Positions 1-34,817 of a stretch of DNA of 60,727 nt are shown here, in pieces. Position numbers and translations under genes: made by a program. The stretch lies in contig JACQPB010000025.1 of the NCBI GenBank assembly GCA_016202305.1, forward strand, positions 1 through 60,727. Direction: 5' to 3'. This DNA comes from Candidatus Iainarchaeum sp. Lineage in GTDB: Archaea; Iainarchaeota; Iainarchaeia; Iainarchaeales; Iainarchaeaceae. The number at the start of each line of letters is the position of its first letter. The stretch's first letter is position 1. The notes under the pieces were generated by a model. The model worked only from the letters and a program-made list of their open reading frames with translations, made no database searches and was not told the origin of the DNA.

Positions 1-1574
1 ATATTTTCTGGATTTTCTAAAATTACTTTACTCGCAGTTAGTTTTTTCTTAACGCTTTCATTTATTTTTTCTTTAAACTCTTCCGGGAGTTCTTCTTCTT
101 GAATTTCTAAAAATGCTTCTAATTGCTCTTTTTTCAAATGCAATTCTTCAAGCCTTGGTTGGTAAACGATTTTAACCGTAAAACCGTCTCGTATTGAATC
201 CGTAATGAAGTATTTGTCAAAGTATTTTTCCTGCGGCGGATAACTGAAAGCTTCATAAGTGTCTTTTCCACCTTTAGCGATTGGTGTTCCGGTAAAGGCA
301 AAGAAAAAAGCTTTCCTCAAAATGTTTCTCATTTGCGCGGCCATTGTTCCATATTGGGTTCTGTGACCCTCGTCAACGAATGCCAGTACATTTTTCCTGT
401 TGAGTATTGTGCTGTTTGTTTTTGAGGCCGCTTCCAGTTCTTTTTGCAGCGCGTCCAGTTCTTCGGCCCTGAACTTGTGGATTAGTGTTATCATTATTCC
501 GCGTTTTCCTTTTCCCTCGTCGTGCTTCAATGTTTTTCTTAGCGCTTCAATCGAATCAATGACTTCCACTCTTGGAATGTCCAATGCGTTGAATTCCTGC
601 TCTAGTTGTATCTGTAAATCCTGCCGGTCCACGACAAAGAAGATTGTTGGGTTCTCCAGTATTTCGTTTCGGTAGAGTTTGTTTACTGCAAAAATCATTG
701 TCAGGGTTTTTCCAGAACCCTGCCAGTGCCAAATCAGGCCCTTGTTTTTGTCTTCAGTTCCGTTAAAGTTATCCAAGACTCTTTTAACTATTTTTTCCGA
801 TGCACGGTACTGCATGTATCTTGTGATTACTTTGGTCGAGCTTCCGAATTCAATCCTGAAAAACAAGTAATTTCTCAAAATGTCAAGCAGCCTGTTTGGG
901 GCCAGCATTTCAATCGTGGAGTCGACGGGATCGTTTTGTTCTTGTTCTTTCCACTCGTAAATCCGGGTTTCTTCTTCCCAAGGAACGATTGCAAAGTATT
1001 TGACTATTTGCTCGGCCGCCACTCCAATCTGGACGTATTTATAGAGTTCTGGAATTTTTTGCTCATATTCTTTTATTTGTTTGTAGGCATCAAACCACGA
1101 TTCGGAAAAGCTGGCGGGGTTTTTGCATTCAATGTCAACCAGCGGGATACCGTTTACGTATAGCATGATGTCTGTTCTGATTTCGCCTCTGCCACTGTTG
1201 TACACCACTTGCCTGCTGGCAATAAAGTCGTTTTGTTCCGGGTTTTCATAATCAAACAGTTTAACGTATTTTACCAAGCGGTCTTTTTCAAATTTGATTG
1301 GCACGCCCTGCTTGAACAAATTAAGAACGCCCTTTATTCCCTCAACAGTCGAACTTTTCAGTTTTAACTCGTTCAGCACTTTCTTTATTTCCTCGTCAGT
1401 GATGTCAAGTTTGGCGTTTAATTTCTTTAGTGACCGAATTAAATTTGGAATAAGCAATGGCTCTTCAAAGCTCTCGCGTTCCAATTCGTCCGCCGGAACA
1501 AAACGCCAGCCCTTGGCCTTAAGCTTTTCAATGAAGTAATCTTCTGCAACAGACTTCTCGCTAAAGTGCGGCAT
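1..1574 (-). CDS. hsdR: Type I restriction enzyme R subunit (HsdR), N-terminal ~524 aa; gene continues beyond window start
   Basis: Not in the ORF track because there is no stop in the window. My reverse-strand translation from ATG 1574-1572 gives MPHFSEKSVAEDYFIEKLKAKGW..., with helicase motif I 'HWQGSGKTLTM' and motif II 'AFVDEGHRTQYG'. It is the last gene of the hsdM/hsdS operon. Confidence 0.9.
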   Translation of the reverse strand, partial: MPHFSEKSVAEDYFIEKLKAKGWRFVPADELERESFEEPLLIPNLIRSLKKLNAKLDITDEEIKKVLNELKLKSSTVEGIKGVLNLFKQGVPIKFEKDRLVKYVKLFDYENPEQNDFIASRQVVYNSGRGEIRTDIMLYVNGIPLVDIECKNPASFSESWFDAYKQIKEYEQKIPELYKYVQIGVAAEQIVKYFAIVPWEEETRIYEWKEQEQNDPVDSTIEMLAPNRLLDILRNYLFFRIEFGSSTKVITRYMQYRASEKIVKRVLDNFNGTEDKNKGLIWHWQGSGKTLTMIFAVNKLYRNEILENPTIFFVVDRQDLQIQLEQEFNALDIPRVEVIDSIEALRKTLKHDEGKGKRGIMITLIHKFRAEELDALQKELEAASKTNSTILNRKNVLAFVDEGHRTQYGTMAAQMRNILRKAFFFAFTGTPIAKGGKDTYEAFSYPPQEKYFDKYFITDSIRDGFTVKIVYQPRLEELHLKKEQLEAFLEIQEEELPEEFKEKINESVKKKLTASKVILENPEN

Positions 1575-2379
1575 TTTGATCACTTCTTGCTGGTTTTGAT
1601 TTTTCTAGATATTGTTTAAAACTAGCCGAATCCAAAATTTCTTTTATGATGTCAATAGACCACACCTTGGCCAGTCCAGTATTTTCTTCAAAAATAATTC
1701 TCGGTCGCCTTGTTTGTACGCTAACCGCAATGTCTTGATAAGGAATGTATTCACTACAAATTCCAATAAATCTTCCTAAATGAGTGGCTCCAAATTGTAT
1801 TCCTTTTTCCTTAATTGCAATAGGCGATGGTTTCAACAATACTGGGCTTCCACTATTTCCAGGAAAAACGCTGGCATCTATATAAAAAGTCCTGTCTTCT
1901 TCAATTCGCGAAATTATTCCGTTCCGTACAATAGGCTTGATTTTTGCAGTGGATAAACCAGGCTGGAAACCCAAAAGGAATATATCATCCGCCACATTCA
2001 ACTCCTTTATATCTAAAAAAGAAGCGGATTCTATTGTTTTGACGTCATCATTTTCAACATCTAAACCAAATCCAATAACAGCAATATCAACATCTTTATT
2101 AGCATGGAAATGCCATTCAGCACTGAAACCACGTTTAATATCATCTATTTTTCTTTCGATAACTGTTCCACTCTTTGAATTAAAAGCTGCAAACAAGTTT
2201 TCCCTAAATTTTCCATTCTCATCGATAATCACATGTTTGCAAGTAATTAAACAAAACACGCCCGAAACCTGCAAAAGAGCCCCCGTACCAATCTGAATTT
2301 TTTTCGCCCCCTCTTGGTCTTTTATTTCTTGACCAAGATAAACGACTGTTTTTTGCCAATCAGGAATTAACCAACTCAT
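1561..2379 (-). CDS. Cytoplasmic trypsin-like (chymotrypsin-fold) serine protease
   Basis: 272 aa with a catalytic triad in canonical order: His 'ITCKHVI', Asp 'KDVDIAVIGF', Ser 'FPGNSGSPVL'. No signal peptide. ATGA overlap with the upstream hsdS half and a 14-nt overlap with the hsdR start. Confidence 0.7.
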   Translation of the reverse strand: MSWLIPDWQKTVVYLGQEIKDQEGAKKIQIGTGALLQVSGVFCLITCKHVIIDENGKFRENLFAAFNSKSGTVIERKIDDIKRGFSAEWHFHANKDVDIAVIGFGLDVENDDVKTIESASFLDIKELNVADDIFLLGFQPGLSTAKIKPIVRNGIISRIEEDRTFYIDASVFPGNSGSPVLLKPSPIAIKEKGIQFGATHLGRFIGICSEYIPYQDIAVSVQTRRPRIIFEENTGLAKVWSIDIIKEILDSASFKQYLEKSKPARSDQNAAL

Positions 2380-3002
2380 GAGTTCACCCTCTTCTTTCCA
2401 GTCAACAAATCATTCATCAAACCCCGCTTGATTCGCTCAAGCTTGTGTTTTTGAGTAGTTTGAAGTGATAGTTTTTTGTCAAGTGTGGAAAACACTTCAA
2501 CAATTTTTCTTTGTTCCTCAATTGTTTTGGGAACAAAAATTTCGGTTTTTCCAACCAAAGTTGTGTTCAAATTCCCCTGTGTTCCAGATTGCTTCTTTCT
2601 TAAAAAATCAGTCTCAATTGATTGAAGAGCATAGAACAAATATTCTCTATCATACTTAGTGTCATCAATATTTCCAAACAGGACAAACCCATCGTGGATA
2701 CAAGCGGGGATATTAACAATTATTGGTTTCCCTATCGTCGCACAAATACTCATTATCAAGTCGCCTTTATTGACTGAAACACTTTTTGACGCGCCCAAGT
2801 CGGATAAATATTGACTTGTCTTGTTTAGATATTTGTAAGAGGAGGTTACATCCTCAATCCTTATCCAGCCTCTCCCAGAATCCGAAAAATATGCTTTGTT
2901 TAGTATTGGTCTTGGAGACGCACCCCTCCTTATTGTCGCTATTTCAGAGAGTTTTACTTTGCGTAAACCATTTCCGTCGAACAGTTTTTTCATGACGCCC
3001 AC
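2376..3002 (-). CDS. hsdS: Type I R-M specificity subunit, C-terminal half (TRD2 + distal conserved helix)
   Basis: 208 aa. TRD-like body 'IRRGASPRP...', then the HsdS conserved helix 'EEQRKIVEVFSTLDKKLSLQTTQKHKLERIKRGLMNDLLTGK'. It begins at a GTG only because the upstream frame is broken at the GA repeat. Confidence 0.75.
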   Translation of the reverse strand: MGVMKKLFDGNGLRKVKLSEIATIRRGASPRPILNKAYFSDSGRGWIRIEDVTSSYKYLNKTSQYLSDLGASKSVSVNKGDLIMSICATIGKPIIVNIPACIHDGFVLFGNIDDTKYDREYLFYALQSIETDFLRKKQSGTQGNLNTTLVGKTEIFVPKTIEEQRKIVEVFSTLDKKLSLQTTQKHKLERIKRGLMNDLLTGKKRVNS

Positions 3003-3577
3003 CTTGAGCCGTTCGACTGCTCGTCTCTCTCTCTCTCTACGAGGCTAATCGCATCATCGACGGAAGAAAGAATATCTGAGATGGATTGTTGTTCTGTCAG
3101 TGATGGAAGAAGAATTTTAAGTTTTGCCAAATCGGTTCGTAGAACGCCTTTTATCGTGCTTCCTTGTGCAAGTGATTTAATTTTTTGCTGGTCTTTGGCT
3201 AGTTGCCAGTAAACAAATTCGGGCAATGCTTTAGATTTATCCAAAATAAGCCCAGTTAAATCTTGGCTAATTGCAACATCAATTTTGTTGATAGCCACCT
3301 TTCCAATTCCAACCCTTGTAGCTACAAGTACGTTATCTTTAGGGACAAGGTTGCTGGCACTTTTTTCCAAACCCTTTTTTGTAATATATTTCTGGCCCGC
3401 AACTATTTTTCTGCCATTGATATGGGCGCTTGTCATCCAAGGTATTTCACCGCCCCAATAATCTTTATGTGCAGTTGAGGGGGTGCCACCACCAATCATA
3501 TCAGAACATAGTAAGCCAAGTTCTGTTGTTTGCCAAGCTTTTGGCAGTTGCTCATTTTGAATTGTTTTGCTGGTCAT
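2990..3577 (-). CDS. hsdS: Type I R-M specificity subunit, N-terminal half (TRD1 + start of central conserved region), ends out of frame
   Basis: 195 aa with 'GGGTPSTAHKDYWGGEIPW' and 'LPSLTEQQSISDILSSVDDAISL', typical of HsdS. The tail 'VERERDEQSNGSRWAS*' follows the GA repeat and looks frameshifted. Confidence 0.75.
   Translation of the reverse strand: MTSKTIQNEQLPKAWQTTELGLLCSDMIGGGTPSTAHKDYWGGEIPWMTSAHINGRKIVAGQKYITKKGLEKSASNLVPKDNVLVATRVGIGKVAINKIDVAISQDLTGLILDKSKALPEFVYWQLAKDQQKIKSLAQGSTIKGVLRTDLAKLKILLPSLTEQQSISDILSSVDDAISLVERERDEQSNGSRWAS
3024..3038. repeat. (TC)7T simple-sequence repeat ((GA)n on the coding strand) at the junction of the two hsdS halves
   Basis: Direct read of tcgTCTCTCTCTCTCTCTacg. 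Coding strand reads GTA GAG AGA GAG AGA GAC. Confidence 0.95.
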
Positions 3578-4173
3578 TTTTCAACCCTCGTCAAATTAAA
3601 TGTCCCGCTCGTTAGGGGTTTTCTGTTGGTGAAATAATTTCCTTGCAAGGCATTCTGATTTTTCATGTAGACTTCGACAGTTCCAATGTGTTCTTGGATA
3701 CCTTTCGCTGTCGCTTCCGGCTTATTGGTGTATGAGTAAACCAGTTTCTTTCTGGATTGATTAAACCCATGAATCATGGCGCTGAAGCTTTCGGAATAAG
3801 AATGGTAAAATTGTGAATCCACCATGATTTTTGAAAATGTCTGATTTATGGTAATCTTAACAGTGAATTTTTGTGGCTGAGATCTATTATATGTTGAGTT
3901 TCCTTCTCCTTTCCAGACCCCGTTAAAATCCGGAACGTTCAGGAGTTGGCTAAATGGCTTAATACGCCACAGAAAGTTATCGAATGCATAGAAAATTATC
4001 GCAAATATTACGAACGGTGATGTTGAAATGAAATACCCTACAAAGACATTGGATTGATTAAGCGAATCAATCATTGGTGAAATAATCAAGGCAAGATATG
4101 CACTAATGACCGCAATGAACACTATACTTTCAAGTCTTTTCTGCGAGTTCAGTGAATATTCGTGCATGTTCAT
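3574..4173 (-). CDS. 2-TM protein with beta-strand-rich C-terminal domain; candidate Cap15 / SMODS-associated 2TM-beta effector
   Basis: 199 aa. Two N-terminal hydrophobic helices ('IVFIAVISAYLALIISPMI', 'VFVGYFISTSPFVIFAIIFYAF'), then a ~130-aa polar, beta-prone domain. ATGA overlaps with both neighbours, and it lies directly downstream of the CD-NTase-like gene. Confidence 0.5.
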   Translation of the reverse strand: MNMHEYSLNSQKRLESIVFIAVISAYLALIISPMIDSLNQSNVFVGYFISTSPFVIFAIIFYAFDNFLWRIKPFSQLLNVPDFNGVWKGEGNSTYNRSQPQKFTVKITINQTFSKIMVDSQFYHSYSESFSAMIHGFNQSRKKLVYSYTNKPEATAKGIQEHIGTVEVYMKNQNALQGNYFTNRKPLTSGTFNLTRVEK

Positions 4174-5051
4174 TCACCGTTCCATAACTGTATACACGCG
4201 CCAATAAATGCTTTGCAGTCAGTGGCATTCCATTGTGTTTCTTCTTGTCCGAAAAGCCTCGTTATTCCGTTTTGGCAGTTGAAACTGTTTAAATTTTCAG
4301 TATTTTCGTTTAGCCATTTGAGACAATTGAAAACGCTGGTTTGCAAGCTTGTAGTGTAGCAACTATTTGGAGCATTGTATAGCAGACACTCGACAAAATA
4401 GGATGGGGCAACACGGTTGTTCAGTTTTCCTTCGTCTACAAGTTTATTTCGAGCGTTTTTGAAGATGCGGACTACTTTTTTGTAAAGGTCGCCTGTAGAT
4501 TGGTGTTTTTTCACACCATTGTCAATATGTTGTTTTGGAAAATTATAGATTAGTGATCCATCCGGTTTCTTTATAGATACGCCCTCAGTGTAATGAGCTT
4601 GATTAGCTTCTGAAAATGAATGATAAACCCTATGTGACAGGCAAGGAATCACATCCGCATTCAAATATCCGTTTCCCAAATTCAGTTTTATGCTCTTGTT
4701 CCCCGATCCAGTAACTCTGTTTCCAAATAAATTTGTTAAATCATTTCGGAGTTCGCTATGGCTATATGCAGAGGTTGAAGTTTTTGTACTGTATGTGGTT
4801 TTTTCAGGCTCCGTCAGCTTAGTTTTGTCTGAAGTCCAGACACTTTTAAGCATTACGACAATGTCGACATCACTGTTAGCCCTAACATGCGTAGTATTTG
4901 CATAAGAGCCCTGCAAAAAAATGCTGAGTTCGTTTTTCTTCGCATATGCTGAATTGTTTATTATATTTTTTACTGTGTCGTATGTTCTGGCAGAACCACT
5001 ATCCGCTCCAGTGTGGCCCCATGTTTCGAGTTGCTGCTCACTTAGTGTCAA
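4170..5051 (-). CDS. CD-NTase / SMODS-type nucleotidyltransferase (CBASS-like cyclase candidate)
   Basis: 293 aa. Pol-beta NTase motifs 'FLQGSYANTT' (GS), 'SDVDIVVM' (DxD) and third acidic 'LNADVIPC', plus a 'PSYFVECLLYN' helix. TTG start abuts the hsdM stop. Confidence 0.65.
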   Translation of the reverse strand: MTLSEQQLETWGHTGADSGSARTYDTVKNIINNSAYAKKNELSIFLQGSYANTTHVRANSDVDIVVMLKSVWTSDKTKLTEPEKTTYSTKTSTSAYSHSELRNDLTNLFGNRVTGSGNKSIKLNLGNGYLNADVIPCLSHRVYHSFSEANQAHYTEGVSIKKPDGSLIYNFPKQHIDNGVKKHQSTGDLYKKVVRIFKNARNKLVDEGKLNNRVAPSYFVECLLYNAPNSCYTTSLQTSVFNCLKWLNENTENLNSFNCQNGITRLFGQEETQWNATDCKAFIGACIQLWNGE

Positions 5052-6854
5052 TTACTTCAACCCCTTCAAATAGCCCTCAATTTTCTTGTCCACTTCCTCG
5101 TCTTCTTTTTTGAGCTCATGGTATTCTTTCCATTCCTTGTCAACATCAATGTCTTCCTGTTTTTCTTCCGGATAAACGTAAAGCGAAACGTTGAGGTTGT
5201 AATCGTTCTGCCGGATTTCGGACGCGTTAACCACACGGCAAAAGCCGGGCGAATCTTTGAATTCTTGGAATGCTTTGACGATTTCGGCAATGTTTTTTTC
5301 GCCCAGGCGGTTAAGCTTTCGCACTTCTGGGTGTTTTTCAAACTTTTCCGAGGCATTGATAATCAAAATCTTGTCCTTTCTGGCGGGGGCTTTTTTCTTG
5401 TTCAGGAAAATGATGGCTCCTGGCGCGCCGGTGTTGTAAAAGAGCTTTTCAGGTAACAAGAGCACGGCTTCAATCAAATCACCTTGCAGGTTACTGTCTC
5501 CGTCAATGATTTTGGTTCTGATTGCCCGTTCCTTCCCGCCCCGAAACAGAGCCCCATTGTCTATTACAATGCCAACTTTTCCGTTTTTGTCATTTGAAGA
5601 TGCGAGCATGTGCTGTATCCAAGCCCAGTCAGCGGATTGCTTTGGAACAAATCCAAAAGGAAAGCGCTGTTTCCAGAATTCGCCTTTTTTGAGCACGCTT
5701 TCATCGTAGCCGTCCTGGTTCCAGGGCGGATTGGCAATTACAATGTCGAATTCTTTGATTGTTTCCTTTTCCTTGAACTTCGGATGCAATAAAGTATCGC
5801 CAAAGGCGAGGTTTGCATTGCGGATGTCGTGCACGTACGTGTTCATTTTGGCGAGCGCAATTGTTTTTTGGTTGACTTCCTGGCCAAACAAGAACAATTT
5901 ATCGGCTTCCTTCTTGCCCTTATTGTGCTCCACGTGCTTGTATGCTTCAATCAGCATGCCGCCGGAGCCCGCGGAGCAGTCATAAATGCTTTGGCCGGGC
6001 TGCGGGTCCAAAACTTCTATGAGTTGCTTGATTACTTCGCGGGGCGTGTAGATTTCGCCTTCTTTTGCCTTGCTTGGAGCAAAGTATTTGAGAATCCATT
6101 CATACGCGTCTCCCAAAATATCGGCGGAGACGTGGCTGAGTTTTTTTTCGCTGAAAAGCTCGATAAGCTGGCGCAGTATTTCGGAATTCTCGCGGCTGGT
6201 TGTGAACTGGATAAAATCCGCGTTGTCAAGAATGTCTTTGAGTTCCGGGTTTCTCTCGGCCAAGGTCTTTAGGGCTTTGGAGAATTTTTCGGGTTGTTTT
6301 TCCACATCCTTGCGGATGTTGTCCCACAAGAATTCGCGGGGCATGTCAAAGTCGTGGAAGGTCGCGCTCTCCGCTTCTTTTTCCGCTTCCTTTTCGTTCA
6401 AGCCGTCTTCAATAGCGTCTTTCTTCGCTTTTTGGAATTCGTATTCCCATTTGTCGCTGATTCGCTTGTAGAATAAAAGTATGAGTATGAATTTGTAATC
6501 AACGCGCGTGCGAATCAAGTCAGCAGCTTTTTTGAGGATACTGTCAATGTCGGTTCGGGTTAGGCCGTTTTGCTTGATGAAAAGGTGTTCGCCGATTATT
6601 GCACTTTTGCTTTTGAGTTTGTAAACCCGCTTACGGGCATCAACAGGGTCAAGTTCGGTTGTGAGCCAACCAGCTTTTCGCAGTTCGGAAATGAAAACAG
6701 GAACCTCTTTATCAGCGTCCTTGTTCTTTTCAACCAGAATTTTTGTCGCCGTTTCCAAGCCGAAAGGAGAATCCTTGAATTCCGCCCAAAGCAAGTCATA
6801 GCGGACTTCAAGCCACTTAGGCAACTGTGCCTCTATCTCTACCATAAAGAACAA
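5052..6854 (-). CDS. hsdM: Type I R-M N6-adenine DNA methyltransferase subunit
   Basis: 600 aa. SAM motif 'YDCSAGSGGMLI', catalytic 'IANPPWNQ', and an HsdM N-domain 'LFYKRISDKWEYEF'. The likelier start is ATG 6845 (MVEIEAQ...), downstream of a TATA box. Confidence 0.9.
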   Translation of the reverse strand: MFFMVEIEAQLPKWLEVRYDLLWAEFKDSPFGLETATKILVEKNKDADKEVPVFISELRKAGWLTTELDPVDARKRVYKLKSKSAIIGEHLFIKQNGLTRTDIDSILKKAADLIRTRVDYKFILILLFYKRISDKWEYEFQKAKKDAIEDGLNEKEAEKEAESATFHDFDMPREFLWDNIRKDVEKQPEKFSKALKTLAERNPELKDILDNADFIQFTTSRENSEILRQLIELFSEKKLSHVSADILGDAYEWILKYFAPSKAKEGEIYTPREVIKQLIEVLDPQPGQSIYDCSAGSGGMLIEAYKHVEHNKGKKEADKLFLFGQEVNQKTIALAKMNTYVHDIRNANLAFGDTLLHPKFKEKETIKEFDIVIANPPWNQDGYDESVLKKGEFWKQRFPFGFVPKQSADWAWIQHMLASSNDKNGKVGIVIDNGALFRGGKERAIRTKIIDGDSNLQGDLIEAVLLLPEKLFYNTGAPGAIIFLNKKKAPARKDKILIINASEKFEKHPEVRKLNRLGEKNIAEIVKAFQEFKDSPGFCRVVNASEIRQNDYNLNVSLYVYPEEKQEDIDVDKEWKEYHELKKEDEEVDKKIEGYLKGLK

Positions 6855-6869
6855 TTTCCCAGCAAAAAG

Positions 6870-6878
6870 TATTTAAAG
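6870..6878 (-). promoter_or_regulatory. TATA-like box (CTTTAAATA on minus strand) ~24 nt upstream of hsdM ATG 6845
   Basis: Direct read. The spacing fits an archaeal leaderless promoter. Confidence 0.35.
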
Positions 6879-7098
6879 CGATGGCTTATTTCATAAGTAA
6901 AATTCATTTTAGCTTATATATTGGTAGTAATCTAAGCATCTTGCAAGTTTACTTGACGGCTGTTTATAAGGCCAATTCAACCCTTCATCTCCGAGGGCCA
7001 TTGACTGAAAGCGCTTTGCCTGGCTTCAGTCCGTGGTGCCATAGGTCCGGTGTAGGGCCTCGCCTCTTCACTGGGGGTAACGCACCCTCACTGGCCGT

Positions 7099-7975: not shown

Positions 7976-8824
7976 TCAAATTTCTTTTGACCCTGACTTT
8001 TCCCTTATCCTTTTTGCACCCTCGGCCTTTTCAAGGTAATTGCCGCCTGAAACAACGCTCTTTCCAAGCTTCTTTTCTATGTTCCTCCTTGCCTCCCCGG
8101 CAACGCTTCCGCCGTCATTCGCGTCTGTTTTGAGGCGATGGAATTCCCGCGAGTCCTTCTCCCTTGTTATCCTCGTGGTCGTGGCCTCACCAAGCATTGT
8201 CAGGATAAGCTCTAAGTCATCCATGTGGTCGCGCAGGTTCTGTGTTGAGAGGCCCTTGTGTTTTTTATATTCGCTTGGGGTCATGCCGAATGCGGCTTTG
8301 GATATTTCCGCGGTCAGGATTGAGTAGGCCGCATCCGTTTTCGCGCCCCTTCTCTTCCATTCGCCGGTAAGCTCGTCCCTTACGGCTATTCCGCGGACCC
8401 TTTTCTCAATCCACTCGTCCGAATAACCCTTTTCGTGGTAGAGCTCCTTCATGCGCTTCTGGGCGAGCTCCGGGTCATCTATTTCCTGCACCCGCTCATA
8501 ACCGACCTTTGCTAGCCATAGCTTGAACGGCTCGGCTTTCGGGGAGGGGATTGACTGTATTATCCTAAAAGTCCCTTCAGTGCTGGCACAGTTCATGTTT
8601 TGGCGCCCGCCTTGGGTGGTGACAGAAAGGGTATGTACAAATTGTACCCACCCTTTGGAAAGCTCTTCATCCCTTTGCCTCATCTTATTGATATACTGCT
8701 TCGGGTCTGTAGAATCAGTAAGGGCTGTCACTATATCCTCAATTGCAAACCACCACTCCTCATTGTGCCACGCCCTGCGGATTTTCCTTCCCTGAAAAAC
8801 AGCCAATGCATTTTCCGCAGTCAT
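7976..8824 (-). CDS. Bro-N / DinD-like (DNA-damage-inducible protein D family) protein
   Basis: 282 aa. N-terminus 'FQGRKIRRAWHNEEWWFAIEDIVTALTDS' resembles a Bro-N domain. The C-terminal 'RDHMDDLELI' region resembles DinD/RhuM-type proteins. Confidence 0.55.
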   Translation of the reverse strand: MTAENALAVFQGRKIRRAWHNEEWWFAIEDIVTALTDSTDPKQYINKMRQRDEELSKGWVQFVHTLSVTTQGGRQNMNCASTEGTFRIIQSIPSPKAEPFKLWLAKVGYERVQEIDDPELAQKRMKELYHEKGYSDEWIEKRVRGIAVRDELTGEWKRRGAKTDAAYSILTAEISKAAFGMTPSEYKKHKGLSTQNLRDHMDDLELILTMLGEATTTRITREKDSREFHRLKTDANDGGSVAGEARRNIEKKLGKSVVSGGNYLEKAEGAKRIREKSGSKEI

Positions 8825-9035: not shown

Positions 9036-9180
9036 CGGGCCCGGGGGGATTTGAACCCCCGACCCCCTGCTAGCCTCCCCTTTTATTCTTTTTCTTTTCC
9101 ATTAACGCTTTTCTTTTTCTTCCCAAGAAAAAGGAAAGGGTTAGAAGGCAGGTGCTCTATCCAAGCTGAGCTACGGGTCC
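9036..9180 (-). tRNA. tRNA-Arg(TCT) with ~70-nt intron in the anticodon loop (about 9071-9140)
   Basis: Minus-strand read: GGACCCG-TA-GCTCAGCTTGGATAGAGC-A-CCTGC-CTTCTAA-[intron]-GCAGG-GGGTC-GGGGG-TTCAAAT-CCCCC-CGGGCCC-G. One A3:C70 mismatch, no encoded CCA. Confidence 0.8.
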
Positions 9181-20229: not shown

Positions 20230-20913
20230 TTACAATTGCGATAATTTTTCAATATTTTTCCTCGCCTTCCCAAGGGTTTTTTCATATTGCTCCGGTGGCA
20301 GCTTTCCGTGCACGCCCTGGAGTGCGTTGAGAAAAACCCGTGAGCCTATTTTGGAGAGGATTTTTTCGGCGTCGATTTTCGCGTTGATTCGCTTTGCCAT
20401 TTTCCGTATTTTTCCGATATCCAGTTTTATTGCAGACAGCATGAAAAGGTCGCGTATGTCAGTGCTCCTTGCAGGGCAGGCCTTCATGAGAAAGAGCAGT
20501 TCGGGGTCAACGACGCGGCATTTTATTTGAATCGGCGAGCCCTTGCCGAATATCGCCTTTTTTGACGAATTCTCAAAAATCATTTTGGCAGGGAAAATGG
20601 TGCCGCTCAGCCTGTCCTCAACGGCTTGTGAAAGTATGTCGAATGTTGCGGGAGGCTCGTTTGAAGCCATAGCGGCAAATTCCCCGCCATATGGCAGTTT
20701 TCCGCCTGCGCGCTCTGAAAAGCCCCCGTTTTCAAGGAGTTTTTGGATTTTTTTGGCGTTTTTACTGTTTTGCACCACGATGTCGCAGTCGATAGAAAAG
20801 CGCGGGAGAACATAGGCATTGATTGCATACCCGCCGATGACCACAAAATCCGCTTTTTCGGAAATATGCTTCAGGGTAGAAAAAAGGAATTTTTCTCTCT
20901 CGGCAAAATTCAT
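20230..20913 (-). CDS. Nucleotidyltransferase, AbiEii-like toxin candidate
   Basis: 227 aa with 'FVVIGGYAINAYVLPRFSIDCDIVV' (GG...R.S.D.D NTase signature). 4-nt overlap with the upstream regulator-like ORF. Confidence 0.5.
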   Translation of the reverse strand: MNFAEREKFLFSTLKHISEKADFVVIGGYAINAYVLPRFSIDCDIVVQNSKNAKKIQKLLENGGFSERAGGKLPYGGEFAAMASNEPPATFDILSQAVEDRLSGTIFPAKMIFENSSKKAIFGKGSPIQIKCRVVDPELLFLMKACPARSTDIRDLFMLSAIKLDIGKIRKMAKRINAKIDAEKILSKIGSRVFLNALQGVHGKLPPEQYEKTLGKARKNIEKLSQL

Positions 20914-21554
20914 ATCGCCTCACCTGCCTTTATCACGAATTCTTCGGAAGCCGTGGTCTTTATTCCATGCCTGTTCTGGAAATACGCCAAAACATATTCA
21001 AATGCGTCCTTGTTCGATTCGCAGAATTTGACTGTCTCATCCAATGGTTCCACTGGCAAGCCATTGTGCTCGTCCACAACCATAGATTTTACTGCCTTTA
21101 AGATTACGAACTCCCCCAAGACATTTGCAGGTTCCTTTTCAAAATAATTGATTTCCAGCTTGGCCAAAAATGTGCGCCACTTCCTCAAATCCTTTCTGAA
21201 AACCTTTATGAAAAAAGGCGAGTATTCCCATGACCTTTGCATGTATGTCTGGTCGCTCCAAATCTCGGCGGCGCTAGAGCCTGTAAAGCAATAGCTCAAG
21301 TCGGATTCTTTCAAGGCATTTTCGGCCTTCGCCTCAAAAAAACCGGCAATGGCGTCCTGGGGGGTTTCACAAGTATATTTGCCCCTGCCTTTGGTCTTCA
21401 ACCATCCAGCCCCGACCAACCCGAAAATCAACTTCTTCAACATGGGCCGTGAGAAGTACCAGCGCACGCTCTCATTTGTGAACTCCTTTGTGCCGAACTT
21501 CAAGTGCAACAAGGAATACAATGAAAACTCCAACTTGGTCAAGGCGCGTGCCAT
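20910..21554 (-). CDS. wHTH regulator, AbiEi-like antitoxin candidate
   Basis: Start moved to ATG 21554 (MARALTKLEF...), which lies ~24 nt downstream of a TTTTTATA box. N-terminal wHTH-like region 'LVGAGWLKTKGRGKYT'. Paired with the NTase gene. Confidence 0.45.
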   Translation of the reverse strand: MARALTKLEFSLYSLLHLKFGTKEFTNESVRWYFSRPMLKKLIFGLVGAGWLKTKGRGKYTCETPQDAIAGFFEAKAENALKESDLSYCFTGSSAAEIWSDQTYMQRSWEYSPFFIKVFRKDLRKWRTFLAKLEINYFEKEPANVLGEFVILKAVKSMVVDEHNGLPVEPLDETVKFCESNKDAFEYVLAYFQNRHGIKTTASEEFVIKAGEAI

Positions 21555-21637
21555 GCTAATATAGCAGCGCAGGAGGTATAAAAAGGTTACCATTAGGGTA
21601 ACCAGATTTGGAGGGAGATTTTCGCCATGCAGCAAGG

Positions 21638-21707
21638 CGCGGAGGTGAGCGCAAACCCAAAATTTCAAACCAATAGTAGTAGCCTTTGTTTGAGTTGTTT
21701 ACTATTG
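21638..21707. repeat. Repeat family B, copy 1 (decayed tRNA-Ser 3'-end-like segment + conserved stem-loop)
   Basis: About 77% identical to 30939-31008 by manual alignment. On the minus strand it ends ...TGGGTTTGCGCTCACCTCCGCG, resembling the T-arm and acceptor of the tRNA-Ser(CGA) gene 440 nt away. Confidence 0.7.
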
Positions 21708-33731: not shown

Positions 33732-34187
33732 TCACTGAACCGGCTTTTTGCCTTTTGCTATTGTTTCTTTGACTCGCTCGATGAAGTTTGAGACTTCTTC
33801 GAAGATTTCGTTCAAATCTTCTTCAAGTTCGGACTGTTCGAGGGAGTATTGGATGTCGTTTCTTTTCGAGCGCAGCGAATCAAGAATAACGGATTGTTGC
33901 AGTGTTATGAGTTCCTGTAATTGGTATTTTTCCTCGATGTATTTGCAGACGCAGTAGTGGCTTCTTTCCTTCACTCCGTCCCTGAAAAGAAGCGCCCTCG
34001 CGGCGTGGAATGAGGCGTTGTAGAGGGCTATGAATGCCATGTCCTTCATGCTCGTTTTCAAAATCTCTTCAGCTTCGTCAAGAAAGTGCTCGGCCTGCTT
34101 TACGCTCTGCTCGGCATAATTCAAATTCGACTTTATCTTCTTGAGCAGGCCCTGCTCGAAGCACTCCTCAACCTTACTTTTGGTCAA
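33732..34187 (-). CDS. HEPN-domain protein (toxin half of an MNT/HEPN pair)
   Basis: 151 aa all-helical, with 'YNASFHAARALLFRDGVKERSH'. 4-nt overlap with the upstream MNT gene. Confidence 0.6.
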   Translation of the reverse strand: MTKSKVEECFEQGLLKKIKSNLNYAEQSVKQAEHFLDEAEEILKTSMKDMAFIALYNASFHAARALLFRDGVKERSHYCVCKYIEEKYQLQELITLQQSVILDSLRSKRNDIQYSLEQSELEEDLNEIFEEVSNFIERVKETIAKGKKPVQ

Positions 34188-34759
34188 AAGCCCTCACCGT
34201 GCAGTATTTTTGACTTGTTCTCAAGCTCGTTGTAGAAAATCCTGTCCTTTTGCTTGAGGTTTTGGATGTCTTGTGGTGTAAAAAACTTCAGGCTAACTTC
34301 TCTGCCTATTTCTTTGGAGAATTCCTGCCTCAATTTCCCGGCCTCAACGATGCGTTTTTTGCTGTCGGAAACAATCCACAGGTCAATGTCGCTTTGCTTG
34401 TCAACCGTGCCATCAACTGCACTCCCATAAAGCCCGATGGAGTCGGAGGCTTTCTTCAGGGACAAAAAGGCTCTGGAGCCGAGAATCTTATTAGTGTAGA
34501 TTAGGGTAATTATTTCCTTTACCAGCGGGTTTGACTTGTTCAATGCTATGATTTTGCGGTTGTCGTTCTTTTCAACCGTAATAAGCTTGTTTTTAGAGTA
34601 AATGTCTACAAACTGGGTGATTTTTGCAGGGGAGCACATGGTCTTTTTCGCCAGCCCGCGTACGGAGGCATTCTCAGTAATAAGCAGTTCGAAAATCTGC
34701 AGGTTGAATGGCCCCAGAAGCCTTGAAAGTTCTGCCATACAAAACAATTGCATGTTCAC
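34184..34759 (-). CDS. Minimal nucleotidyltransferase (MNT) with N-terminal wHTH
   Basis: 191 aa with 'IGLYGSAVDGTVDKQSDIDLWIVSD' (GS...DxD). Confidence 0.7.
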   Translation of the reverse strand: MNMQLFCMAELSRLLGPFNLQIFELLITENASVRGLAKKTMCSPAKITQFVDIYSKNKLITVEKNDNRKIIALNKSNPLVKEIITLIYTNKILGSRAFLSLKKASDSIGLYGSAVDGTVDKQSDIDLWIVSDSKKRIVEAGKLRQEFSKEIGREVSLKFFTPQDIQNLKQKDRIFYNELENKSKILHGEGF

Positions 34760-34817
34760 AATTTATAAACATAGTGTTCACAAAAAATGAACAAAATGTT
34801 CACTAAAAGTAAACATT

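Follow-up and report, generated by a model that had tools for sequence, protein, structure and literature searches.

A two-domain hsdS gene probably split by the gain of one GA unit in a horizontally acquired, low-GC type I restriction-modification operon

Why should the specificity gene of a type I restriction-modification (R-M) operon fall into two open reading frames (ORFs) exactly at a dinucleotide repeat, and does the cell make any use of the break? The question is raised by hsdS on contig JACQPB010000025.1, of which the first 60,727 nt (the window, meaning the whole stretch that was analysed) carry the gene near one end, within an operon of low GC content. The account that we consider likely is that a gene for a specificity subunit with two target recognition domains (TRDs) was split by the gain of a single GA unit, in an operon that had itself been acquired horizontally. 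Several rival accounts have to be weighed, in particular that the repeat is a functional switch.

On the plus strand, positions 3024 to 3038 read TCTCTCTCTCTCTCT, that is (TC)7T, which on the coding (minus) strand is (GA)7, within the context GAT GCG ATT AGC CTC GTA GAG AGA GAG AGA GAC GAG CAG TCG AAC GGC TCA AGG TGG GCG TCA TGA. This is the sole period-2 tandem array found by Tandem Repeats Finder in the 60.7-kb window (7.5 copies) and also its longest dinucleotide run, the next GA/TC runs, such as (TC)4 at 20894 and 35995, having 4 units; the 14-mer of the tract occurs once in the window and never in 100 dinucleotide-preserving shuffles. The N-terminal ORF (3577..2990, minus strand, 195 aa; Pfam Methylase_S, PF01420, E = 7e-28) comprises TRD1, 25 residues from the start of a 39-residue central helix and an out-of-frame tail of 11 residues, DEQSNGSRWAS. 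The C-terminal ORF (2993..2376, minus strand; Methylase_S, E = 2e-19) codes for the end of the central helix (4 residues), for TRD2 and for all of the distal helix; its mechanical start, GTG 3002, would give 208 aa, and the ATG at 2993 gives 205 aa. A preliminary description of this DNA had placed the split of hsdS at (GA)7, with (TC)7T at 3024-3038, and the tract coordinates, the frames and the Methylase_S matches in both ORFs confirm it. Its prediction that deleting 2 nt (or adding 4) would restore the frame through ORF 2376-3002 is also borne out: removal of one GA unit yields a single uninterrupted ORF of 399 aa, addition of two units one of 401 aa, and addition of one unit leaves the frame broken, the restored frame running ...SLVERERRAVERLKVGVMKKLFDG... 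as predicted. The central stretch of this read-through, SLVERER RAVERLKVGVMKKLFDG, is obtained only after the 2-nt removal, and its pattern is echoed in the distal helix of the same protein (HKLERIKRGLMNDLLTG). The two-TRD HsdS expected earlier is thus recovered, at 399 aa where about 390 aa had been proposed.

The read-through models as a canonical two-TRD S subunit. In the AlphaFold2 model, built with 56 homologues (predicted local distance difference test score 94, predicted template-modelling score 0.83), TRD1 ends at about residue 157, a central helix spans residues 160-198, TRD2 spans 205-348 and a distal helix spans 352-391. The tract (3024..3038, minus strand) codes the E-R-E-R of residues 181-184, within the central helix and therefore between TRD1 and TRD2. 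Among solved structures the best relative is HsdS of M. jannaschii (1YF2, E = 4e-58), and 1972 homologues of the read-through were retrieved at E <= 1e-10, of which the best 120 are nearly all 380-460 aa long (the outliers being 265, 312 and 562 aa) and all carry Methylase_S. ERER at the protein centre is absent from all of these 120, and the GA run appears confined to a small clade with near-identical central-region DNA. By central region, the nearest relatives are P0006, P0007, P0022 and P0027 (P0027 from a Woesearchaeota metagenome-assembled genome, MAG), with the sequence DIVERESQRVERLKVGLMKELFDG; relatives that share this region are single ORFs of 384-418 aa or are in frame over the tract. 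As the window actually reads, no single polypeptide holds both conserved helices: the frameshift breaks the central helix after residue 184 of the read-through, neither product contains residues 185-194 (RAVERLKVGV), among them the nearly invariant K191 and G193, and the ATG at 2993-2991 is the family's nearly invariant Met195.

Comparison at the DNA level locates the difference precisely: within the GA run the window exceeds every in-frame relative by exactly 2 nt. The distance from GTA to GTCGAACGG is 21 nt in relatives as against 23 nt in the window, and the run of the in-frame relatives takes the form GT(AG)6T, G(GA)5GT or an interrupted GTAGAGAGGGAGAGC. Loci L008, L009 and L030 read GTAGAGAGAGAGAGTCAGCGA, with 21 nt between the two landmarks; L015 and L021 share this run and differ slightly in the tail (GTAGAGAGAGAGAGTCAAAGA then ATCGAACGG), again with 21 nt; in L020 the version is (GA)5; the Woesearchaeota locus (L002-L007, L010-L012, L041, L048) has the interrupted run GTAGAGAGGGAGAGCCAGCGA; and the window reads GTAGAGAGAGAGAGAGACGAGCA. 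At the corresponding codons the run of the relatives is thus shorter or interrupted (GAG AGA GAG AGT, coding ERES). All of these relatives are in frame over the run (tblastn high-scoring segment pairs span it, and the L021 ORF is 397 aa), so that the window allele has the longest pure run of at least 8 alleles and is the sole one clearly out of frame. After the run the DNA of the relatives is strikingly conserved, all reading ...GTCGAACGGCTCAAGGTGGGC(C/G)TCATGAA, and a +2 shift anywhere in the run would be expected to end identically throughout the clade. Scans with the conserved central DNA agree: 35 metagenome matches include 5 hsdS genes, all in frame, 3 genome matches include one, in frame, and the viral scan gave no match. 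In L021 the orthologous layout is hsdM, cdn, cap15, an intact 397-aa hsdS and hsdR. That hsdS was ancestrally one fused gene is well supported by these comparisons, and since the window differs by +2 nt from all fused relatives, the split would be a derived slippage frameshift. A stable pair of half-hsdS genes, which the preliminary description had envisaged in the form of related genomes with the same split, was rejected, because every relative that shares the central region is fused.

It could be objected that many public entries of 190-220 aa, retrieved with the C-terminal half, start at the conserved central Met. Two such half-size entries were inspected on long contigs: in one (L053, 2190-3630) the gene was called too short within a full-length frame that is open, and the other (L051, 2437-3660) is a decayed gene whose TRD1 has decayed. 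This class of entries is therefore uninformative, and the existence of the C-terminal ORF proves nothing by itself. Half-size HsdS entries that begin at this Met are a general annotation pitfall of the family.

Is the seven-unit state shared by other samples? Tract length was read from Logan assembler contigs at a depth of 3-15x, which drop rare variants, so that "fixed" here means "consensus". Contigs of three further samples cross the tract without an indel (X1, 2312-4696; X2, 2101-3343; X3, 3014-3186), which makes 7 units the sole state in four data sets, the window included; no 6- or 8-unit version of the window allele was found in these contigs, in which minority lengths would be lost. 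Runs X1-X4 all differ from the window at a single-nucleotide polymorphism (SNP) at 3771, so the window is not a mere copy of their assemblies. The organism is present in seven runs and the allele in four groundwater runs, SRR12113431 among them. Runs X6 and X7, from another study, contain operon fragments, none of them over the tract. Among 15 billion proteins clustered at 90%, each half stands alone in its cluster, and the two are entered in NCBI nr as separate proteins, the C-terminal half as a separate 205-aa protein. A fused copy of the window allele was not found, the search with the read-through protein giving nothing above 65% identity.

The same aquifer (X2, X3, X4) holds at least four further hsdS alleles that share only a central stretch of about 40 nt (window 2976-3015) and diverge on both flanks, with different TRD1 and TRD2, as would be expected for TRD shuffling. 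Allele C reads INIAERERQSVERLK and is in frame; allele D, whose depth in X2 is about 123, falls 2 nt short of the window beside the run. In allele B, visible over 30 nt in read-length contigs of X3 and X4, the distance from GCA to GAACGG is 23 nt, not 24; the frame is fixed by the 12 nt upstream, 11 of which agree with allele C. Variation of the shufflon or inverton type was rejected, as tblastn of the read-through finds only the locus itself within the window.

How could such a split arise, and what would it leave behind? The simplest account, and a well-supported one, is that the extra GA unit came from slipped-strand mispairing. The lesion would then be recent and the consensus state of the present population, and it could be reversed by the loss of one unit or the gain of two. 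The N-terminal product lacks a complete dimerisation helix (25 of 39 residues, followed by 11 unrelated ones) and is probably crippled. The C-terminal product, with TRD2 and the distal helix in full, would be a complete half-S with its start at Met195 behind the Shine-Dalgarno (SD)-like AGGTGG. We hypothesize that the system is either OFF, or that a homodimer of the C-terminal half reads a palindromic site set by TRD2. The preliminary description had offered two readings, a slipped-strand switch (ON/OFF, or full versus half S) and a fresh inactivating frameshift; the ancestral fusion and the +2 nt in the GA run are supported, and the 3-15x contigs show no tract-length heterogeneity. Nothing shows that the tract works as an on/off switch in regular use by the cell.

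Several points nevertheless weigh against a mere recent lesion. The tract passes a published length threshold and, like known switches, is placed between the TRDs (PMC7383803). Damage is absent from both ORFs and from the remainder of the operon, which also fits a functional split that is maintained, and contigs at this depth are blind to minority lengths. Allele B may be 1 nt short and thus a second frameshifted allele at the same run, which would suggest a recurrent hotspot, although only 30 nt of it are seen and all other alleles with a readable frame are in frame, with a shorter run. Finally, the fate of the two halves is deduced from helix boundaries alone.

The best placed of the rivals, which we hold to be unlikely, is a contingency locus, in which the GA tract would change length often and toggle between a fused HsdS with a bipartite site and a split or half HsdS that reads a palindromic site or is OFF; the methylome, or restriction specificity against viruses, would vary as a result. 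The preliminary description named simple sequence repeats (SSRs) in hsd genes as a route to phase variation, and this is established for SSRs between the TRDs of hsdS (PMC7383803; NgoAV, PMC9577141). Atack et al. 2020 counted SSRs inside an ORF, with a unit that is not a multiple of 3 and, for dinucleotides, at least 5 units; such SSRs are reportedly always between the TRDs in hsdS, and 7.8% of the hsdS genes in REBASE fall under this definition (PMC7383803). The window (GA)7 falls under it as well, with 7 non-triplet units in an ORF between the TRDs, but the definition predicts mutability and does not demonstrate switching; moreover, unlike the genes of the survey, which are annotated at full length, the window gene was caught in the split state. 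Archaea go unmentioned in the main text of that survey (PMC7383803).

The closest precedent for the window hsdS appears to be NgoAV of N. gonorrhoeae FA1090, with hsdM, hsdS1, hsdS2, hsdR and a poly-G tract (PMC9577141, citing Adamczyk-Poplawska 2011). There a 208-aa N-terminal HsdS1 yields the specificity GCAN8TGC and the fused form GCAN7STCA, hsdS2 being inactive (PMC9577141). The likeness is considerable: in both cases hsdS lies in two ORFs through a frameshift at a simple repeat between the TRDs, the loss of one unit would give a canonical two-TRD subunit of about 400 aa, and the operon is otherwise intact. There are also differences from what is described there: (i), the window repeat is a dinucleotide run and not a homopolymer; (ii), the window break falls inside the central helix, leaving the N-terminal half without about a third of its dimerisation helix and the C-terminal half complete, so that the candidate functional half is C-terminal, a mirror image of the active N-terminal half of NgoAV; (iii), the window comes from an uncultured, probably archaeal, groundwater organism and not from a host-adapted pathogen. 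The window hsdS thus belongs with the known SSR-bearing hsdS genes of the NgoAV type, among which the break within the helix that leaves the C-terminal half complete, and the probable archaeal host, are unusual. Half-HsdS enzymes are said to have been obtained by Tn5 truncation in EcoDXXI and as deletion mutants in EcoR124I, where one TRD with one helix homodimerises and reads a palindromic site. Those are reportedly N-terminal halves of type IC subunits with a full central region, unlike the window's candidate, which is C-terminal and predicted only.

What else favours a contingency locus is found in the locus itself. Apart from the tract, the locus is intact in hsdM, in both TRDs and in hsdR as far as it is visible. 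The codons GAG AGA GAG AGA are improbable under the usage of the operon (Glu GAG 23%, Arg AGA 36%; P about 0.007) and are nevertheless shared by several alleles. Allele B, too, is possibly frameshifted at this run. The shared codons are, however, explicable by near-identical central-region DNA, through common descent or recombination, and the Woesearchaeota allele interrupts the run by a synonymous AGA>AGG, which argues against selection for purity. The shifted frame also ends exactly at the conserved internal ATG behind an SD-like motif: at the ORF junction (2990..3005, minus strand), AAGGTGGG at 3005-2998 is followed by a 5-nt spacer and by the ATG at 2993-2991, which overlaps the TGA stop of the N-terminal ORF at 2992-2990 to form ATGA. 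SD-like motifs precede the starts throughout the operon, those of the other genes being GGTGA or GAGGGT, and the other genes have similar overlaps of 4 nt. Read in the fused frame, however, the junction letters code L-K-V-G-V-M and are retained in in-frame relatives, so the apparent coupling signal would be a by-product of coding sequence. Further against a switch, a single length is seen in the window MAG and in the contigs of three samples, the other alleles with a readable frame are all in frame with a shorter run (allele B aside), and the N-terminal half, in contrast to NgoAV HsdS1, lacks a third of its helix.

A bolder form of this idea, that phase variation of a type I R-M system through an SSR is met here for the first time in an archaeon (probably of the DPANN type, in an aquifer), with the C-terminal half acting as a homodimeric half-S, seems to us improbable. 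If it were true, restriction specificity against viruses would be diversified in a population that possibly does without mismatch repair.

More doubtful again is a neutral split, in which the halves would come together again without a covalent link, by way of HsdM and what is left of the coiled coil, and the bipartite specificity would stay as it was. Much of the scaffold is left for this (25 of 39 central-helix residues and the entire distal helix), and translation of the C-terminal half is plausible given the ATGA overlap and the SD-like motif. The idea gains plausibility from the HsdS of EcoR124I, which is said to tolerate expression as two halves, and that of EcoAI, which reportedly tolerates circular permutation. 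In the window, however, ten helix residues (RAVERLKVGV, K191 and G193 among them) are lost and replaced by 11 unrelated ones, no relative has adopted the arrangement, and the two half-size entries inspected that start at the same Met are the miscall and the decayed gene described above.

Two remaining readings are very improbable. Translational recoding would have the ribosome slip on the GA run to yield full-length HsdS, the 2-nt periodicity permitting re-pairing after a 2-nt slip (+2 or -4 keeps codon-anticodon pairing), but no known stimulatory element is apparent, relatives code the same peptide in frame, hence there is no conserved recoding signal, and +2 frameshifting is, to our knowledge, very rare. 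An artefact of sequencing or assembly, the true genome having 6 units and an intact hsdS, could be suspected as dinucleotide runs are miscallable and the source is a low-depth MAG, but the independent Logan assemblies of three samples have 7 units and no gap, and the window differs from them at the nearby SNP 3771, so assembly error was rejected.

The favoured reading, a recent split by one GA unit, also places the event in an acquired operon. The hsd operon (1-6900) has 35-48% GC, and 41% in its coding sequence, as against about 56% in the rest of the window (7000-60727), a contrast that points to a horizontally acquired island; codon preference differs as well, with AGA and GAA preferred in the operon and AGG elsewhere in the window. 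The contig begins inside hsdR, and the far boundary of the island lies outside the window. The genes lie on one strand, overlapping or abutting, in the order hsdM, CD-NTase, Cap15, hsdS-N, hsdS-C, PDC-S45 peptidase, hsdR, and no further lesion was seen in hsdM, in either TRD or in the visible part of hsdR. The gene hsdM (6854..5052, minus strand) is an intact 600-aa ORF, with a likely start at ATG 6845, matches to Pfam N6_Mtase (E = 9e-106) and HsdM_N, and 66-67% identity over its full length to the HsdM of L002 and L021. It is followed by a gene of the antiphage signalling system that is based on cyclic oligonucleotides (CBASS), a CD-NTase or oligonucleotide cyclase (5051..4170, minus strand; PADLOC Cyclase, E = 2e-103, and a weak match to Pfam SMODS), which is 56% identical to the gene at the equivalent position in L021 and L015. 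Next comes a Cap15-type CBASS effector with two transmembrane (2TM) segments (4173..3574, minus strand; Pfam Cap15_CD_rec, E = 5e-27; PADLOC 2TM effector, E = 1e-47), whose gene overlaps each neighbour by 4 nt. A CD-NTase with a single effector, without the ancillary genes Cap2 and Cap3, fits a type I CBASS. Between hsdS and hsdR lies a trypsin-like peptidase (2379..1561, minus strand; Pfam Trypsin_2, E = 1e-10), a PADLOC candidate of type PDC-S45 (E = 4e-19), whose start overlaps the stop of hsdS-C as ATGA. The visible hsdR (1574..1, minus strand) is open to the window edge, with no stop in its first 524 codons, and its product is 64% identical to HsdR of L021 and L002. The preliminary description held either of its readings to be of consequence for the CBASS and protease genes; the case for this is weak, since the CBASS genes lie upstream of hsdS and downstream the peptidase gene and hsdR keep overlaps of 4 nt and 14 nt with the gene before them.

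The order hsdM-cdn-cap15-hsdS-hsdR is also found in L021, L015 and L030 (HsdM 67%, cyclase 56%, Cap15 41-43% and HsdR 64% identity), and from this gene order a type I R-M system with embedded CBASS looks like a conserved module. The CBASS pair lies between hsdM and hsdS at 3574-5051 in the window and in no fewer than three other metagenomic loci, at 5048-6509 in L021, 10059-11514 in L015 and 944-1643 in L030. The slot between hsdS and hsdR has different cargo at each locus: the PDC-S45 peptidase in the window (1561-2379), MNT + HEPN with two small ORFs in L002 (7383-9052), and a 165-aa ORF of no stated family in L021 (3368-3865); in L008 a PDC-S02 protein follows hsdS (2076-3092) and the contig ends before any hsdR. 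Other cargo at the Woesearchaeota locus and in L008 comprises a 280-aa protein without known function, MNT + HEPN, and PDC-S02. Unrelated defence genes within type I R-M operons are not new: TgvAB is carried in this way on VPI-2 of V. cholerae (PMC11411939), and both PMC11411939 and PMC12988326 cite Payne et al. 2024 for "guilt by embedding". CBASS itself is already known in archaea (PMC12988326). The window operon resembles TgvAB-type embedding in that it holds unrelated defence genes (the CBASS cyclase and Cap15, and the PDC-S45 peptidase), and differs in that its cargo is a CBASS whose position is kept in L021, L015 and L030, the hsdS-hsdR slot being variable.

If the tract does switch, SSR-driven variation of restriction specificity, so far known mainly in host-adapted bacterial pathogens, would extend beyond them to an uncultured groundwater archaeon and would gain a variant with an active C-terminal half-subunit. 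If it is only a fresh frameshift, the locus would present an ordinary step of decay in a horizontally acquired defence island, and a warning for annotation, as two nr entries named "restriction endonuclease subunit S" would be the halves of one gene. The operon itself, in which a type I R-M scaffold has a conserved CBASS embedded in it and a second cargo slot of variable content, may serve defence surveys more than the frameshift does.

The host is probably an archaeon, possibly of the DPANN type, a call that follows mainly from an intron-bearing tRNA and from the Woesearchaeota relatives of the hsd operon. In its anticodon loop, behind the anticodon, the tRNA (9036-9180, minus strand) carries an insertion of 72 nt, in the manner of archaeal introns, and the nearest hsd operons are those of a Woesearchaeota MAG. 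The tRNA was matched by Rfam and missed by ARAGORN in bacterial mode; its exons recur, with other intervening letters, in contigs from further organisms of these samples. Assignment from argG alone was abandoned as ambiguous, its named matches being a mix of DPANN archaea and bacteria. Between the hsd island and the tRNA lies a gene for a Bro-N domain protein (7976-8824, minus strand), a full-length match to the PADLOC candidate PDC-S13 (E = 6e-111). Further into the window, an AbiEii-like nucleotidyltransferase (a weak match) and an overlapping upstream ORF of 252 aa without a family match (20230-21668, minus strand) may form a toxin-antitoxin pair of the AbiE type. At 34752-34816 there are three copies of a 22-nt AT-rich unit, ATGTTCACAAAAAATAAACATA, with 74% matches, which adjoin a nucleotidyltransferase ORF (34184-34759) and overlap its start by 8 nt.

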